Shown here piece by piece: positions 2,647 through 50,929 of a stretch of DNA of 64,000 bases (position 1 is its first letter; every line of letters begins with the position of its first letter). The notes below the pieces were generated by a model. The model had not been told where the DNA came from, searched no databases, and saw only the letters and a list, made by a program, of their open reading frames with translations. Source of the stretch: an uncultured Acidimicrobiales bacterium (GTDB lineage Bacteria > Actinomycetota > Acidimicrobiia > Acidimicrobiales > SHLQ01); NCBI GenBank assembly GCA_964451305.1, contig CAYVHV010000012.1:8353-72352 (forward strand), written 5' to 3'. Made by a program: the position numbers and the translations under genes.

Positions 2647-3323
2647 CGCAGTGCCCGAACGGCGACATCGGGCACGTTCGTAATGATCCCAGCCACGCCC
2701 ATCTTCGCAAGCTCCACCATGCGGTCAGGGTCATCGACCGTCCACACGTTCACCGACAAGTCCGCCTCGTGAGCAGCAGCAATCCAACGAGACGAAACCA
2801 GCGTGTCCCACGGATTGATCGCACCATGTGAATGAGCCGTGACACGACCGATCGACACCTCAGGACCAACATCATCCATCGTGATCAACGCCGTGGGAAC
2901 CCGTGAGTCCCGGTCACGAACCGCATTGACCGCTCCCATATCGAATGAACTGATCAGACACTTGTCGGCGCTGAGCAGCTCACGAGCTGCGTCAAGAACA
3001 CCAGGCACCATTGTGTGCTCCGGATCGAAGCTCTCCTTCGCTGGATCGTTCTTAATCTCGATATTGACGCCCATATCACCGCACGCAGAAATTGCATCGG
3101 CCAGAGATGGAATGAAATCTGGAAGATCAGCAAAGGCCAACGTGGCCAGCAACTCCCCACTCTCCAACTCCTCATCGTGGAATACCGCGAGCTGCCCATC
3201 GGCGGTTTGCTGAACATCGAGCTCGACCCAATCCGCTCCAAGCTCGCGAGCGCCCACAAATGCTTCGATGGTGTTTTCGGTGAACGCCGCCGATGCGCCC
3301 CTGTGCCCAATGATCAGAGTCAT
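2643..3323 (-). CDS. glpQ: Glycerophosphodiester phosphodiesterase
   Basis: ORF 2643..3386(-). MTLIIGHRGASAAFTENTIEAF...ELDVQQTADGQLAVFHDEEL is the GDPD signature (HRG...E.D...HD). Start trimmed to ATG 3323. Confidence 0.85.
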   Translation of the reverse strand: MTLIIGHRGASAAFTENTIEAFVGARELGADWVELDVQQTADGQLAVFHDEELESGELLATLAFADLPDFIPSLADAISACGDMGVNIEIKNDPAKESFDPEHTMVPGVLDAARELLSADKCLISSFDMGAVNAVRDRDSRVPTALITMDDVGPEVSIGRVTAHSHGAINPWDTLVSSRWIAAAHEADLSVNVWTVDDPDRMVELAKMGVAGIITNVPDVAVRALR

Positions 3324-3561
3324 GGGTCCGAGCGTAGCGAAACCCAAACCCGAGCGACTGAGGCAAGTTGCCCAACTCGCGAGCAAGCCAACCGTTTTTC
3401 AACGATCTACCACCCACAAATTACACCGATGTAACACAGAAAGTGATCCTTCACCCACAAAGAGCGAGGAAATGCTTGCTACCGAGAGTGCCCGCATATA
3501 CATTCTGCGTAGCGAGTCACGTTCTGGGCATGCTGGGCGGCATGGGCATGGAACGGATTCG

Positions 3562-3906
3562 ATGCGTGGAGGAAACGTGTCAATCTCAATTGAAGACCCA
3601 GCGGTATTCCCAACTCGGGAATCCATCGAACCCAAGGTGTGGCGTAGCGACGCCGCATGCCGGGATACCGATCCCGATCTGTTCTTCCCTGTCGGCCAAA
3701 CCGGCCCGGCGATCGAACACATCGAGAACGCAAAGTCCGTTTGTCAAACGTGCGTTGTGCGAGTCGAATGCCTCGAATACGCGTTGATGACAAACCAGGA
3801 CGCCGGAATTTGGGGAGGCCTCACCGAAGACGACCGACGCAAGATTCGTCGTGAACGTCGTAAGGCCAACCGCGCTGCACAGGCAGCGATCCAAGCAAAG
3901 AGCTAG
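3562..3906 (+). CDS. whiB: WhiB-family transcriptional regulator (4Fe-4S)
   Basis: C-terminal part of ORF 3268..3906(+). WRSDAACRDTDPDLFFP...AKSVCQTCVVRVECLEYAL...GIWGGLTEDDRRKIRR gives the four-Cys and GIWGG motifs. Start is uncertain: ATG 3562, or in-frame GTG 3577 preceded by GGAGGA. Confidence 0.85.
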   Translation: MRGGNVSISIEDPAVFPTRESIEPKVWRSDAACRDTDPDLFFPVGQTGPAIEHIENAKSVCQTCVVRVECLEYALMTNQDAGIWGGLTEDDRRKIRRERRKANRAAQAAIQAKS

Positions 3907-24287: not shown

Positions 24288-24987
24288 TTAGGAATTCAGT
24301 CGCCCAGAGGTCGCGTCAAGCACGACTGGGTCCCCGGTTGCGACACTCTTCGTGAGCCCACGAGTGTTGGTTATCGACGGCACCTGGGCGAACTGGCTCG
24401 TGTGTTCGGCACTCAAGACGCCATCACCACTCCCCCAGAGCAACACGGACGGCTCCTCGATCGGCCCGAGCGAATTCCACCATGTCGGGGTCAACAGATC
24501 GAACATCACGCTGAACGCGTCGCACTCGACGTAGGCATCAAAGAAACGGTCGACGGTGTCCGAGGGAACGTCTGTGAAGCGGCGGCGGCCGACAGTCTTT
24601 GCCAACGGACTCGAGATCAGTGCCTTCGCAATCGCCCGAACCGGTTCGGGTCTCATGATCCTAGGGATCAGCCTCGTGTCGAGAGCCGGACCGACGAGCG
24701 AGTGAAAAAATGTAGCCGTCGGCCCAGCCAGTGGCTTGTGCAGCGCTGAGCAGAATCGAACCTCCGATCCCGTGGCCCATCACCACCCGAGGGCGCGGCA
24801 GCGCGTTGACCTGCTCGATCAACGCCGCAGCGAAGTCGTCTACCGACAGGGTGGCGTTTGGCAATGGCGTGCCACCAAAACCGGGGAGTGTGATGGGCAC
24901 GATCGTCACATCGTCTGATGGGTGAAGGTCCATCAGTTCAAACCGATGCAGGCTCCCCCGATTTCCCGGGATTACCGCAAGATGCAT
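24288..24987 (-). pseudogene. Alpha/beta-hydrolase-fold gene split by a frameshift in an A6/T6 run
   Basis: ORFs 24661..24987(-) and 24288..24656(-) are adjacent in different frames. Removing one base of the A6 run (24705-24710) gives continuous ...GWADGYIFHSLVGPALDTRLIPRIMRPEPVRAIAK... The nucleophile elbow reads GHGIGG (Ser position is Gly). Confidence 0.6.
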
Positions 24988-30685: not shown

Positions 30686-31945
30686 ATGAACTTTGACCTA
30701 TCGGCAATCGAGCTCCGGGTGATGTGTGCGTTGGCGGAAAAAGAGTCGACGACACCGGATCAGTATCCGCTGAGCACGAACGCCCTTCGCTCGGCGTGCA
30801 ATCAAAAGACGAGCCGCGATCCAATCACCGATGTCTCCGAAGCCGACATCGAATCAACCATCTTGTCGTTACGAGAGCGCGGTCTCGTTCGCAGCCTGAA
30901 ACCGACAGGTTCGCGGAGTTGGAAACATCGCCAAACCCTGCCCGAAGTCCTTCCGCTCACCGACGGCGAGTTGGCGCTGGTGACCGTGCTTGGGTTGCGC
31001 GGTCCGCAAACTCCTGGTGAACTCCGCCAGCGCACCGAGCGCATTTCCTCCTTCGAATCGGTCGAAGAATTAGAGGGCACACTCCAGGGTCTCGCGAACC
31101 GGGACAACCCTGTCGTAGAGAACCTCGGACGCGAGCCCGGCCAAAGCCAAGACCGCTGGATGCATCGTCTAAGCAGCGACACCCAAAGTCCTCAGCAGGG
31201 TCGCCAGCGCGTGATGGCAGCGGAGTTCGCTGCACTGCACGAGTCGGGATTCTTTGCGCTCCCCAACCCGTGGGACCTCATGTCGGCCAAAGCCATGGAG
31301 GCTGCCGGTGCCAAAGCGGTCGCGACGAGTAGCGCTGCGTTAGCCGCAGTTCTCGGCAAGGATGACTATGGGATCGAGCGCTCCGAGCTGGTCGACCATG
31401 TCGCTCAACTCGCGGAACACCTCTCCATCCCGGTACACGTCGATAGCGAACAGCTCTTCCCGAACGACCCCGGTGGTATTGCCGAGACGGTTCGACTGCT
31501 CGCAGGCGCGGGAGCGGCGGGGGTCTCTATTGAAGACTTTGATCCCGCAACCGAATCGATCATCGATCGGTCAGCGGCCATCGAGGCCGTCACCGAAGCT
31601 GTCGACGCGTGTCGTCAGCATCATCTCGTGCTCACCGCGCGCCATGAGAGTCACCTCTATGGTCCTGCCTCGCTCGACGAAACCATCGAGTGTTTATCGG
31701 CATATGCCGACGCCGGCGCGGACTGTGTGTACGCCCCAGGCCTCACCGACACGGACGAGATCCAACGGCTGGTTGAAAACGTTGGGGCGCCGGTCAACGT
31801 GCTGGCGTTACCCGACGCTCCAGAAAGCGAGTTCCTCGAGTTGATTGGCGTTCGCCGAGCATCCACGGGATCGCTGCTGTTCCGAAACGTCGAACGAACT
31901 ATGGTGGCGGCGATAACCAACTTCCTCGGAAACGGATCACTATGA
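30686..31945 (+). CDS. Fusion protein: N-terminal YceH/DUF480 winged-helix domain plus C-terminal isocitrate lyase/PEP mutase family domain
   Basis: ORF 30686..31945(+). Residues 1-165 align with my recollection of E. coli YceH (LSAIELRVMCALAEKESTTPDQYPLSTNALRSACNQKTSRDP...LRGPQTPGELRQRTERI...REPGQSQDRWMHRL). The rest is ...FFALPNPWDLMSAKAMEAAGAKAVATSSAA...VHVDSE...AGVSIED, which is ICL/PEPM-like. Confidence 0.75.
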   Translation: MNFDLSAIELRVMCALAEKESTTPDQYPLSTNALRSACNQKTSRDPITDVSEADIESTILSLRERGLVRSLKPTGSRSWKHRQTLPEVLPLTDGELALVTVLGLRGPQTPGELRQRTERISSFESVEELEGTLQGLANRDNPVVENLGREPGQSQDRWMHRLSSDTQSPQQGRQRVMAAEFAALHESGFFALPNPWDLMSAKAMEAAGAKAVATSSAALAAVLGKDDYGIERSELVDHVAQLAEHLSIPVHVDSEQLFPNDPGGIAETVRLLAGAGAAGVSIEDFDPATESIIDRSAAIEAVTEAVDACRQHHLVLTARHESHLYGPASLDETIECLSAYADAGADCVYAPGLTDTDEIQRLVENVGAPVNVLALPDAPESEFLELIGVRRASTGSLLFRNVERTMVAAITNFLGNGSL

Positions 31946-32592
31946 CCACCACCGATAGCGACGAAACTCCCGCTCGGCCCGTTCACCTGACCGTCTATTC
32001 GGACTTTCTCTGACCGTGGTGCTACGTCGGGACCGTGCGTCTCGACAAGCTGCAAGAACAGATGGGTGACCGAATCACCGTCGAGTGGAAGTCCTTTCTA
32101 TTGCGAGCGGAGCCAAAGACGGACGATCACGATGCGTTCGTCGAGTACACAACGTCGTGGCTGCGCCCGGCCGAGATGGAGGCCGAAGCACACTTCACCG
32201 TCTGGGCGAGTGCCGAAAGCCAACCCGATTCGAGCATTCCGGCCCAGGTCGCGTTCAAAACTGTCGAGGCGATCGCTCCCGAGCTCGCCAAGCCGTTCCA
32301 CGACCGGCTGATGACCGCATACTTCACCGAGAACCGCAATATCTCAAATAGCGACGTCCTCATGGAACTCGCTGGCGACGTGGGGGTCGATACCGCCGCT
32401 CTTGAAGAAGCGGGCCGAAGCCGCCGTGACGAGTTCACTCAGCTCGTGATCGACGAACACAACAGCGCAATGTCCCACAACGTCACCGGGATACCCACCG
32501 TGCTGTTTGAGAATCAGTTCCCCGTGCCGGGCGCGCAACCGCTCGCCGCATATGTGGACATCGTCGAACGGATCGAAGCGCACTTCGCGTAG
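31942..32592 (+). CDS. DsbA/FrnE-family thiol:disulfide oxidoreductase with in-frame TGA at the first Cys of CPWC (candidate Sec codon, or nonsense-disrupted gene)
   Basis: Manual translation from ATG 31942 (ATGA overlap with the upstream stop): MTTTDSDETPARPVHLTVYSDFL-TGA(32011-32013)-PWCYVGTVRLDKLQEQ..., continuous with track ORF 32035..32592. C-terminus NVTGIPTVLFENQFPVPGAQP is the DsbA/FrnE cis-Pro region. Confidence 0.6.
32026..32046 (+). promoter_or_regulatory. Hairpin 12 nt downstream of the in-frame TGA (SECIS-like candidate)
   Basis: gtcggga(c) / (g)tctcgac gives 7-8 bp including one G-U pair. The apical loop ccgtgcg contains GU, and a possible 3-bp lower stem (tgc/gca region) is separated by an internal loop. 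Confidence 0.35.
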
Positions 32593-45017: not shown

Positions 45018-46169
45018 CTAGCTCGCGTCTATCGCCGGTTCATCTCCATCGGCCATGATCCACTCGGCGAGCTTCTCCAAGCGGTGAACGCCCAGGTACG
45101 CGAGCACCAGCCCAACGACTGCAAAGACGAGCAACACGATGTCGGTTCGGAGTTGATCGAGGAAAATCGCGGTGGTCGCCACCTCCAGGAGCGCCATGAA
45201 GGCAACGAACCTGATCACCGTTCTCTCACTGACCTTCGCGGCAACCCACGCGCCCAAGGGCGCTCCCCAGACCACGATCGGTGCAGCGGCGAGCCAAATG
45301 CCAAAGAGGTCGAACTGTACGGCCGGCTCGGGCCCGAAGGTCGCTCCGGCGACCGCAACGACCTCGCTGCCATCTGGGTTGAGGCCAATATCGAGCTGAC
45401 CATGCCAGAATCCGAGCACGAACAACCCGACGAGCGAGACGGTTGCCATCGCAATGATGCTCGTCGGGATGGCGACCTTTGGCGTGACTCCGGCTACCAG
45501 CACGATGAACACGAAGAGGAAGACATCGGTTCCTGAACCGGTCAGCGCCGAAAACAGTCCACCGACAAAGGCGAAGACGGACATGACGAGCACGGAACGA
45601 AAACCCCAGTCGGGCACCTCGTCATAGCGCGAGGTCCGGTTCGAGCAGATGCGAACGATGACCGCCACCGCAAAGATTGCGATCGTGAACGCTACCTTGA
45701 CGAACGATGGCTCGATGCGCGGAGACCAAAACGGTGTATTCGGGTCGCCGAGAGCAACCAGGCCAACGCCGAACCCGACGATGCCACCAGCCACTCCTAA
45801 CCCGAGCGCCTTCCAATCAATTTTGCGTCCGGACAAGATGATCGATGCTGACGCCATGACCATCCCGGTGGCCTGAATCACGATGGAGAACGTGCGCGCG
45901 ACCGGAGCCGAAATTCCGATCACCTTCGTAAAGACTGGAAATGCCACCGCGCCACCGCCTTGTGGGGTGGATCCTGCAACGAAGCTGCCGACGACCATCG
46001 TTGCCGAAGAACGCCAATTGTCTAGAACCCTGTCGAAGTGTCCAAAGGTAAACACAAAGACGAACCACCCAATGGTGAAGGCTGCGGGCAGACCCCAGAC
46101 AGCCGCTCGCCGAATGACGCCCAGTTCTTTGTCCACTTCGTGTTTCTGGGTTGCCTCGGCCGTATCCAT
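45018..46169 (-). CDS. TauE/SafE (TSUP, DUF81) family anion exporter-like membrane protein
   Basis: ORF 45018..46235(-). Polytopic, with internally repeated halves rich in G/A/V (..VGSFVAGSTPQGGGAVAFPV.., ..GGLFSALTGSGTDVFLF..). Start moved to ATG 46169. Confidence 0.6.
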   Translation of the reverse strand: MDTAEATQKHEVDKELGVIRRAAVWGLPAAFTIGWFVFVFTFGHFDRVLDNWRSSATMVVGSFVAGSTPQGGGAVAFPVFTKVIGISAPVARTFSIVIQATGMVMASASIILSGRKIDWKALGLGVAGGIVGFGVGLVALGDPNTPFWSPRIEPSFVKVAFTIAIFAVAVIVRICSNRTSRYDEVPDWGFRSVLVMSVFAFVGGLFSALTGSGTDVFLFVFIVLVAGVTPKVAIPTSIIAMATVSLVGLFVLGFWHGQLDIGLNPDGSEVVAVAGATFGPEPAVQFDLFGIWLAAAPIVVWGAPLGAWVAAKVSERTVIRFVAFMALLEVATTAIFLDQLRTDIVLLVFAVVGLVLAYLGVHRLEKLAEWIMADGDEPAIDAS

Positions 46170-46306
46170 CACGTCGTGAACCCACCGTCGGCAATAGTTG
46201 TTCCGATTCTGTTCATCTCCTGTGTCGGACTGCACTGCGGATCGAAAGGGAAGAAGAACGAATGATGGGTTTGGAAGTCGCTCTTTGGAACTACTGTTTC
46301 GTGGAT

Positions 46307-49972: not shown

Positions 49973-50368
49973 ATGGGCTTTCTCCGCAAGATAGACAAAG
50001 AACTCAAAGCACTGAAGGGCTCGTATAGCGAAGACGAACTCGAAGCGATCAGCAAGCATGGGACGATCATCGACCTGCCACCCGGCAAGGTCCTCTTCCC
50101 GGAGGGCCAGGCTGGAACAGAGTCAGCGATCATCCTTTCCGGACAAGCAAAGCTGTCGACCAACGGCGCCAATATCTCATTGCTCGAACCGGGAGCCGTC
50201 GTTGGTGAAGCCGCGATCTTGACCGGAGAACCACGTACGACCACGGTGTCATCGGTATCGATGCTAAAGGTCTCCGTCCTCAACGCTGGAGCACTGCTCA
50301 GCGTTATAGAAGAGAGTCCAGACTTTCGCTCACGCATCGGCGTGACGATCGAGGCTGACGCCGCCTAA
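49973..50368 (+). CDS. Stand-alone cyclic-nucleotide-binding domain protein (131 aa)
   Basis: ORF 49973..50368(+). ...GKVLFPEGQAGTESAIILSG...GAVVGEAAILTGEPRTTTVSS is the phosphate-binding-cassette pattern G-E-x-A-(I/L)-x6-R-T-(T/A). No output domain. Confidence 0.8.
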   Translation: MGFLRKIDKELKALKGSYSEDELEAISKHGTIIDLPPGKVLFPEGQAGTESAIILSGQAKLSTNGANISLLEPGAVVGEAAILTGEPRTTTVSSVSMLKVSVLNAGALLSVIEESPDFRSRIGVTIEADAA

Positions 50369-50530: not shown

Positions 50531-50929
50531 ATGTTCTTTAATAAAGCCCCTCAGATCAACCCAACCTTGTGCGCACTGAACGAATCGTTCAACGATCACG
50601 AACTTTCATCGCTCAGCACCTTGGGAACCGTCGTTGAACTGCCCGCCGGTGCCGTGCTCGCTCGAGAAGGTGCGGTCGGCCAAGAGGCTGTCGTCGTCAT
50701 CTCCGGAACCGCTCTTGTCGTACGCGACACCGAGACGATCGCGACCGCCGGACCGTCAACAATCCTGGGCGAAATAGCGCTGCTGACCGGCGAGGCTCGC
50801 AACGCATCACTGATCGCCGAGACCGACCTCGTGATCAGCGTGTTGAACCGCCGCGAGTTCAACTCGTGGCTCAACGAGTGCCCACGCATCGAGCGTCAGG
50901 TCAACGACCTCGCTGCCAGCCGTTCGTAA
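50531..50929 (+). CDS. Stand-alone cyclic-nucleotide-binding domain protein (132 aa), paralogue of the preceding gene
   Basis: ORF 50531..50929(+). ...GAVLAREGAVGQEAVVVISG...STILGEIALLTGEARNASLIA. GGAGAAG RBS lies before the ATG. Confidence 0.8.
   Translation: MFFNKAPQINPTLCALNESFNDHELSSLSTLGTVVELPAGAVLAREGAVGQEAVVVISGTALVVRDTETIATAGPSTILGEIALLTGEARNASLIAETDLVISVLNRREFNSWLNECPRIERQVNDLAASRS

Follow-up and report, generated by a model that had tools for sequence, protein, structure and literature searches.

The window analysed here is a stretch of 64,000 nucleotides of contig CAYVHV010000012.1 (assembly GCA_964451305.1) from an uncultured Acidimicrobiales bacterium, and the subject of this report is a gene on its forward strand that very likely encodes a selenoprotein. 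In this gene, a member of the DsbA family, an in-frame TGA stands where the nucleophilic first cysteine of a CPWC redox motif is expected. An earlier note on the window had proposed that the TGA encodes selenocysteine (Sec) and that a hairpin just downstream is a bacterial selenocysteine insertion sequence (SECIS). The element comprises the following.

31942..32592, + strand: predicted selenoprotein open reading frame (ORF), 216 codons, Sec at residue 24, TAG stop at 32590-32592 (sequence and translation)
32011..32013, + strand: predicted Sec-encoding UGA, at the site of the nucleophilic first Cys of CxxC
32014..32022, + strand: P-W-C, the rest of the redox motif, with C27 at 32020-32022 (invariant P-W-C, synonymous codons)
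32026..32046, + strand: predicted bacterial SECIS hairpin, 5' arm 32026-32033, loop 32034-32038, 3' arm 32039-32046

Translation from the ATG at 31942 gives MTTTDSDETPARPVHLTVYSDFL, then the TGA at 32011-32013, then PWCYVGTVRLDKL..., and this TGA is the lone in-frame interruption between 31942 and 32592. The ATG is the sole in-frame start 5' of the TGA; it lies in the frame of the downstream part and overlaps the end of the preceding gene in an ATGA, as the earlier note had read it. That note had also remarked that the ORF list offers only a truncated protein devoid of the active site, and this is so: the mechanical list holds for the locus only GTG 32035..32592 (185 amino acids), and public gene calls begin later still, at ATG 32062 (176 amino acids; P0001). 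TGA is the ordinary stop of 17 of the 53 window ORFs, so that any recoding is local and no change of the genetic code is involved; it also terminates the upstream gene within the ATGA overlap, where the genome therefore reads TGA as a stop.

When Cys was put in for the stop, the read-through protein matched the Pfam family DSBA (PF01323) over residues 16-206 (E=3.8e-24), a match spanning profile positions 2-188 of 191. The closest solved structure was FrnE of Deinococcus radiodurans (5CNW/5CP1; residues 12-202, E=5.6e-15), and the SCO1869 structure 3GL5 was also matched (E=1.2e-9). C22-P-W-C25 of D. radiodurans FrnE aligns with U24-P-W-C27 of the window protein, in keeping with the C-P-(W/F)-C active site that the subfamily carries ~20-25 residues into the chain, and this bears out the placing of the TGA at the first Cys of CPWC in a DsbA/FrnE protein. 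C27 is the sole Cys of the window protein besides Sec and would, by analogy, be the resolving cysteine that forms a selenenylsulfide with U24. A second conserved element lies towards the C-terminus.

32485..32502, + strand: T-G-I-P-T-V loop with the conserved thioredoxin-fold (cis-)proline P185 (alignment)

P185 and V187 are invariant in the protein alignment and the stretch matches TGVPFF of FrnE; P185 is presumably the cis-proline that, in DsbA-family proteins, adjoins the active site. Inspection of the sequence shows an acidic, polar N-terminus, MTTTDSDETPARP, and the active site is reached already at residue 24, which would leave no room for a signal peptide. FrnE is known as a disulfide reductase/isomerase of the DsbA family that works in the cytoplasm and confers protection from diamide, cadmium and oxidative stress; many members of the subfamily, not all, carry a C-terminal CxxxxC regeneration motif (PMC8945050). 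This motif was not present in the whole translation of the window protein, which stops at residue 216; the FrnE proteins of Streptomyces roseofulvus and D. maricopensis likewise have no such tail (PMC8945050), so its absence is not disqualifying for the FrnE subfamily. With D. radiodurans FrnE (DR_0659) the window protein shares a CP(W/F)C aligned to its UPWC, the conserved T-G-x-P loop and, to judge from its N-terminus, probably the want of a signal peptide. It differs in that FrnE has Cys and not Sec, in the low sequence conservation over the aligned region and in the C239-x4-C244 tail, which regenerates the active site of FrnE and has no counterpart here. From its sequence the window protein is predicted to be a thiol-disulfide oxidoreductase of the cytoplasm that belongs to the FrnE subfamily of the DsbA family (COG2761/cd03024).

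That the TGA is functional is supported by its conservation. Relatives of the protein were collected from 80 species-representative genomes, at 36-85% protein identity, whose titles are Acidimicrobiales, Acidimicrobiia or other Actinomycetota with the exception of one labelled as Gammaproteobacteria; an independent scan of metagenomes gave 80 further loci, with the motif found in 77. TGA occurs at exactly the same codon in 79 of the 80 genome loci, the remaining one having TGC, and in 62 of the 77 metagenome loci, with TGC or TGT in the other 15. An alignment of orthologues, which the earlier note had suggested as a check, thus comes out for TGA and not TGC. The region is identical, TGA included, in L001-L006, six assemblies made from different samples, and the complete chromosomes OZ244195.1 and OZ240616.1 are among the carriers of the gene. 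The sequence labelled as Gammaproteobacteria (L034, contig CAXMSE010000035.1, uncultured Gammaproteobacteria bacterium) has a typical Acidimicrobiales-type Sec form in a region near-identical to that of the Acidimicrobiales metagenome-assembled genome L031, and the contig is probably mis-binned.

Codons flanking the TGA on either side are constrained at the level of amino acids. On the 5' side V/W/S/D/F/L are conserved with synonymous variation (Ser as TCC, TCG, TCA, TCT or AGC, Asp as GAC or GAT, Leu as CTC or CTT), and the codon directly before the TGA, CTC in the window, is always a pyrimidine-ending Leu codon except for CTG in 2 of 79. On the 3' side, where the first nucleotide is an invariant C, P-W-C-Y-V-G-T is kept with Pro as CCG, CCC, CCA or CCT, Cys as TGC or TGT and Tyr as TAC or TAT. 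In all Sec forms the TGA is preceded by an in-frame start and by 15 or more open codons, and no frameshift or additional stop was found in any copy. An invariant P-W-C with synonymous change implies translation of this stretch and so rules out a start at GTG 32035; with both flanks constrained and in one frame, the region between the TGA and the downstream starts must be translated in frame with the 5' part. Database proteins present the other face of the same pattern: ~112 of the best 120 protein matches are N-truncated at the same place. Homologues from 82% down to ~45% identity are nearly all 175-190 amino acids long, starting with MRLDKL..., MGD... or MGTVRLD... just past the TGA position, and full-length CPWC proteins are only a few distant matches among those best 120. 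All of the public records examined for the gene in close relatives are N-truncated and without the catalytic residue.

The hairpin described in the earlier note is present as stated, beginning 12 nucleotides past the TGA, with 8 base pairs, the loop CGUGC with G-U at 32035-36, and a folding energy of -10.6 kcal/mol for the isolated hairpin. The model of bacterial SECIS (bSECIS) elements asks for an apical loop of 3-9 nucleotides, an upper stem of 4-16 base pairs, a G within the first two loop positions (the next nucleotide being mostly G or U), a UGA-to-loop distance of 16-37 nucleotides and a minimum free energy of no more than -7.5 kcal/mol (PMC13188914). The window hairpin agrees with the model on all four counts, with a 5-nucleotide loop on an 8-base-pair stem, G-U at loop positions 2-3, a distance of 20 nucleotides and its -10.6 kcal/mol, and the spacing argument of the earlier note is thereby upheld. 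The combination of TGA and hairpin occurs once in the window as against 0 expected. The hairpin was also examined by a comparison of homologues, for which positions are numbered from the T of the TGA as 1 (stem 16-23 with 29-36, loop 24-28) and which was made on an alignment of 79 sequences (A2) and on a wider set of 125 distinct Sec-form sequences. In the former 94.5% of cells are paired, and only 31-47% once the partners are shifted by 1-3 columns; its covariation score was reached by 0 of 500 shuffles, and RNAalifold applied to it independently gave the same stem.

Compensatory changes were seen at three pairs. Pair 22-30 is AU in 58, GC in 13 and GU in 5 sequences of A2, a change of Thr7 to Ala7 (A22 to G22) being paired with one of CGT to CGC; pair 21-31 is GC in 69 and CG in 5, a change of Leu10 to Val10 (C31 to G31) being paired with one of GGG to GGC; and the apical positions 24 and 27 are CG in 45, GC in 21, GU in 6 and AU in 3, around G25-U26. 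Codon choice points the same way. The Val5 codon is GTC in 73 of 79, against 48% of window Val codons, and Leu10 is CTC in 68 of 79, again against 48% of window Leu codons; Arg9 is CGT in 63 of 78 against 20% of window Arg; and Gly6 is GGG in 58 of 68 Gly codons against 14% of window Gly, with GGG in only 5 of 79 at the control position Gly18. Among the 125 Sec forms at least 7 of the 8 pairs are kept in 115, G-U at 25-26 in 124, and 91% reach -7.5 kcal/mol or lower. On this comparative evidence, selection acting at synonymous sites and compensatory substitutions preserve the hairpin.

The TGA aligns with the TGC or TGT of CPWC in L085, in L088-L092 and in 15 metagenome loci. In 17 such Cys forms between 0 and 7 of the pairs are kept, with only 1 of the 17 reaching 7, and GU stands at 25-26 in 10. 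One of them, L088:1001-1633 (ENA ERZ27256841 k141_4213634; protein P0095), is a CPWC form with the same peptide, YVGTVRLD, as the Sec forms; it uses GTG and CGC, which breaks two pairs and leaves 6 of the 8, and its nearest relative in the tree is a Sec form, L136. A Sec form as nearest neighbour, an identical peptide and broken pairs suggest that L088 changed only recently from Sec to Cys and that its remnant of the SECIS is decaying. Whether Sec or Cys was ancestral for the family was not resolved by a midpoint-rooted neighbour-joining tree.

Some variation in the hairpin may be recorded in its own right. Columns 24 and 27 of A2 (32034 and 32037) are the synonymous third positions of the adjacent codons Thr7 (ACN) and Val8 (GTN) and show canonical or GU pairing in 75 of 79 sequences, with the invariant C28 left over on the 3' side of the pair. 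A divergent subgroup of Sec forms among the metagenome loci (L142, L144, L148, L154 and L157) has the peptide YSDYI-U-PWCYV[A/S]AVRLR[K/R] and a hairpin at nucleotides 17-36 after the TGA, that is at the same distance, with other arm sequences, a 7-base-pair stem and a 6-nucleotide GGUCAG loop. The GGUC within it is also the loop of Escherichia coli fdhF.

In E. coli fdhF the spacer is 11 nucleotides and SelB contacts G23 and U24, with the U of UGA as 1; the 12-nucleotide spacer and the G-U at +25/+26 of the window hairpin lie within 1-2 nucleotides of this geometry. The likeness to the fdhF-type SECIS and to the bSECIS model extends to a hairpin inside the coding region after the UGA, a small G-U loop, an 8-base-pair upper stem and a UGA-to-loop distance of 20 nucleotides (PMC13188914, Fig. 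2A). The differences are that the window hairpin has no bulged U in its 5' arm and that its apical pair 24-27 encloses only G-U, with the invariant C28 over.

Sec in DsbA-like proteins of the UxxC type is well established in the literature, as the earlier note had held. A 'DsbA-like protein' (COG2761, UxxC) entered the literature as a new selenoprotein family with nine sequences among Sargasso Sea reads (Zhang, Fomenko & Gladyshev 2005, PMC1088965), was then found in several genomes of Deltaproteobacteria and Clostridia, e.g. Anaeromyxobacter, Desulfovibrio and Desulfotomaculum (Zhang et al. 2006, PMC1794560), and later in 41 organisms (Peng et al. 2016, PMC5029168). Reviews of 2022 and 2026 list it as 'DsbA-like protein form 1, PF01323, UxxC' (PMC9312934, PMC13188914). 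AACY01178397 and NIP15863.1 serve as reference sequences. The window gene shares with this family the Pfam and COG assignment, the replacement of the first CxxC cysteine by Sec, a bSECIS hairpin directly downstream with G in a small apical loop, widespread Cys homologues and routine mis-annotation as a truncated gene. It appears to differ in its carriers, here Acidimicrobiales, Acidimicrobiia or other Actinomycetota with one exception by title, and in that the Sec form is nearly fixed. No NCBIfam model covering the family was found. The literature held no paper linking Acidimicrobiales, Microthrix or Ilumatobacter to selenoproteins, except for a preprint on Actinomarina, and neither the near-fixation across Acidimicrobiales nor the detailed SECIS covariation was found there. 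According to that preprint (bioRxiv 10.64898/2026.04.03.716425) selA, selB, selC and selD are present in all 84 complete genomes of Actinomarinales, which have ~5 predicted selenoproteins per genome, many of them truncated by gene callers. The Actinomarinales belong to the same class, Acidimicrobiia; they are a different order, and 'DsbA' has 0 occurrences in that study.

Several observations weigh against the reading of the TGA as a Sec codon. Neither the 64-kb window nor ~1.34 Mb of related loci yielded a selA, selB, selD or tRNA-Sec gene, and the Sec-decoding trait of the source organism is something that we infer, with the Actinomarinales preprint as its only external support. ARAGORN detected no tRNA in the window or in 60 related loci, and the 4 tRNAs that it found in the metagenome loci did not include one for Sec. 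No SelA, SelB or SelD domain was identified by Pfam in 40 window ORFs, nor did one figure among the genes already tabulated for the central 20 kb, and tblastn with E. coli SelA, SelB and SelD queries gave no match to the related loci (0.67 + 0.67 Mb). Sel genes unlinked to the locus would be missed by such searches, so that this null was to be expected and is not evidence of absence. Rfam likewise gave no match to a SECIS or any other family, either for the whole window at the gathering threshold or for 31900-32150 at E up to 10, which is expected from its thin coverage of bacterial SECIS elements (10.64898/2026.04.03.716425). The fold of the single sequence is no more stable than that of shuffles (z = 0.28), a value that is uninformative in coding DNA of 60% GC; the hairpin has to be judged comparatively, and its support is comparative and not thermodynamic. 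Lastly, the covarying pair 24-27 leaves a 2-nucleotide G-U loop and a bulged C28, slightly unlike the published N1...N2 spacing. A canonical pair closing a 2-nucleotide loop is sterically unusual, and the apex may therefore adopt a special fold when bound.

Three other explanations of the TGA were weighed. The first, put forward in the earlier note as its alternative, is that a TGC or TGT became TGA by nonsense mutation or sequencing error, the product re-initiating at GTG 32035 or ATG 32062 without the nucleophilic Cys. The truncated product is exactly what gene callers output, and another gene in the window does show a homopolymer frameshift that depends on the assembly; against this, the TGA is the same in six assemblies and conserved in 141 homologous loci across an order, the N-terminal and PWCYVGT codons are constrained, and no copy is broken by a frameshift or extra stop. 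A pseudogene or error is therefore rejected as wholly improbable. Scarcely more credible is a pair of genes, in which a conserved upstream ORF of 23 codons ending at the TGA would regulate a DsbA-like protein without the first Cys, the hairpin being a regulatory element or attenuator. Bacterial regulators built of a short upstream ORF and a downstream hairpin exist, and GTG 32035 does sit in the hairpin loop. The upstream peptide, however, forms the beta1 strand of the DSBA domain and the approach to the active site, with the Pfam and FrnE alignments starting at residues 12-16; the frame is always continuous with the downstream part, and the invariant P-W-C is coded between the TGA and any later start. 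Many homologues moreover lack a start codon at the position matching 32035, and the ATG or GTN found for Val8 is ascribed to the coding of Val.

The remaining explanation, that the UGA is read through with an amino acid other than Sec, is improbable, if less so than the other two. Cys might be inserted by a Sec machinery charged with sulfur, Trp or Cys by near-cognate decoding stimulated by the hairpin, or a dedicated suppressor tRNA might read the codon. The want of Sec machinery in the window and related loci would agree with this, a downstream hairpin can stimulate generic read-through and UGA-C is a weak terminator context. The site, however, is the catalytic Cys of CxxC, at which exchange of Sec and Cys is the rule, and the family is already catalogued as UxxC; the hairpin is of the SelB type, with G-U in a small apical loop and a spacing inside the bSECIS model. 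Trp would inactivate the site, TGC would supply Cys without the cost of a conserved hairpin, and the sister order has selABCD. With the conservation of the TGA in 79/80 and 62/77 loci, the codon choice and the compensatory changes, it is highly probable that the UGA at 32011-32013 is the selenocysteine codon of an FrnE-subfamily oxidoreductase (U24-P-W-C27) with its SECIS hairpin downstream, and the candidate UPWC selenoprotein of the earlier note is supported to that extent.

If so, the hairpin would act as a bacterial SECIS by a mechanism of the E. coli type, with SelB.GTP.Sec-tRNA(Sec) binding the hairpin apex as the ribosome nears the UGA, so that Sec would be inserted in place of termination (PMC1794560). 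To judge from FrnE biochemistry (PMC8945050), U24 would attack substrate disulfides and C27 would resolve the intermediate via a U24-C27 selenenylsulfide. The protein may thus cycle between the selenolate/thiol and the selenenylsulfide, reducing or isomerising cytoplasmic disulfides in oxidative or thiol stress, and Sec, being more nucleophilic and of lower pKa, would make it faster than a Cys form. Since there is no C-terminal CxxxxC tail, recycling would presumably proceed through another reductant.

Further selenoprotein candidates were also sought. A general scan for ORFs joined across a TGA was too noisy to use; one constrained by the hairpin returned, over all the DNA examined, 56 DsbA-like matches and only 4 others, which were unconvincing. 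A TauE-like family (K07090) is a predicted selenoprotein in Actinomarina; the TauE/SafE gene of the window at 45018-46235 on the - strand has no in-frame extension and was rejected as a candidate.

The product of the gene immediately upstream (30686-31945, + strand) is a protein of 419 amino acids in which DUF480 is fused to a PEP_mutase/isocitrate-lyase-like domain, and this gene and the selenoprotein gene meet in a short overlap.

31942..31945, + strand: ATGA overlap of the selenoprotein start with the TGA stop of the upstream gene (30686-31945)

This arrangement suggests translational coupling, and the pairing of the two genes is retained only in the ~9 closest relatives. The gene order runs M1 peptidase, metallophosphatase, DUF480/PEP_mutase, selenoprotein gene, two hypothetical proteins and glycosyltransferase; it is kept only among the ~10 closest relatives, and no functional partner emerged from the neighbourhood. 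Elsewhere in the window an alpha/beta-hydrolase gene on the minus strand (~24288-24987) contains a homopolymer at 24705-24710 that differs between assemblies: with A6 (+ strand), as in the window and L001-L004, the Abhydrolase_6 gene is split into ORFs of 108 and 122 amino acids, and with A5, as in L005 and L006 from other samples, it is a single ORF of 232 amino acids. Either the frameshift is a true polymorphism or the homopolymer was misassembled. Two adjacent small ORFs at 49973-50368 and 50531-50929 (+ strand; 131 and 132 amino acids) each have one cyclic-nucleotide-binding domain, and an ORF at 3268-3906 (+ strand) has a C-terminal WhiB domain, consistent with an Actinomycetota origin of the window.

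The window gene is a database-truncated addition to a selenoprotein family known since 2005, so that the result is mainly a fix of annotation; the near-fixation across Acidimicrobiales is the only point of modest novelty, and the current understanding of Sec decoding and of the selenoproteome is unchanged. With a family model and the SECIS alignment A2, well over a hundred database entries would be put right, and the 125 natural variants of the SECIS, all distinct and clearly covarying, provide comparative data on actinobacterial SECIS elements. More tentatively, and with a chance that falls somewhat short of even, it may be proposed that the Sec form is near-fixed across the whole order, in marine, sediment, sponge, soil and wastewater members, that most Acidimicrobiales decode Sec and that their SECIS is a compact, lineage-specific class. 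If this were true, Sec decoding, on which reports to date concern only the sister order Actinomarinales, would extend to most of the abundant and largely aerobic Acidimicrobiales. The SECIS class, missed by Rfam and by standard annotation, would be defined by an 8-base-pair stem and a covarying N-GU-N' apex with a 2-nucleotide loop and a bulged C, with a register-shifted GGUCAG variant in one subgroup, and in Actinomycetota the gene would serve conveniently as a marker and as a model of how SelB recognises a SECIS. For the organisms themselves the finding indicates that the Acidimicrobiales, abundant and mostly uncultured in aquatic environments and soil, very probably need selenium for one or more of their cytoplasmic redox enzymes.

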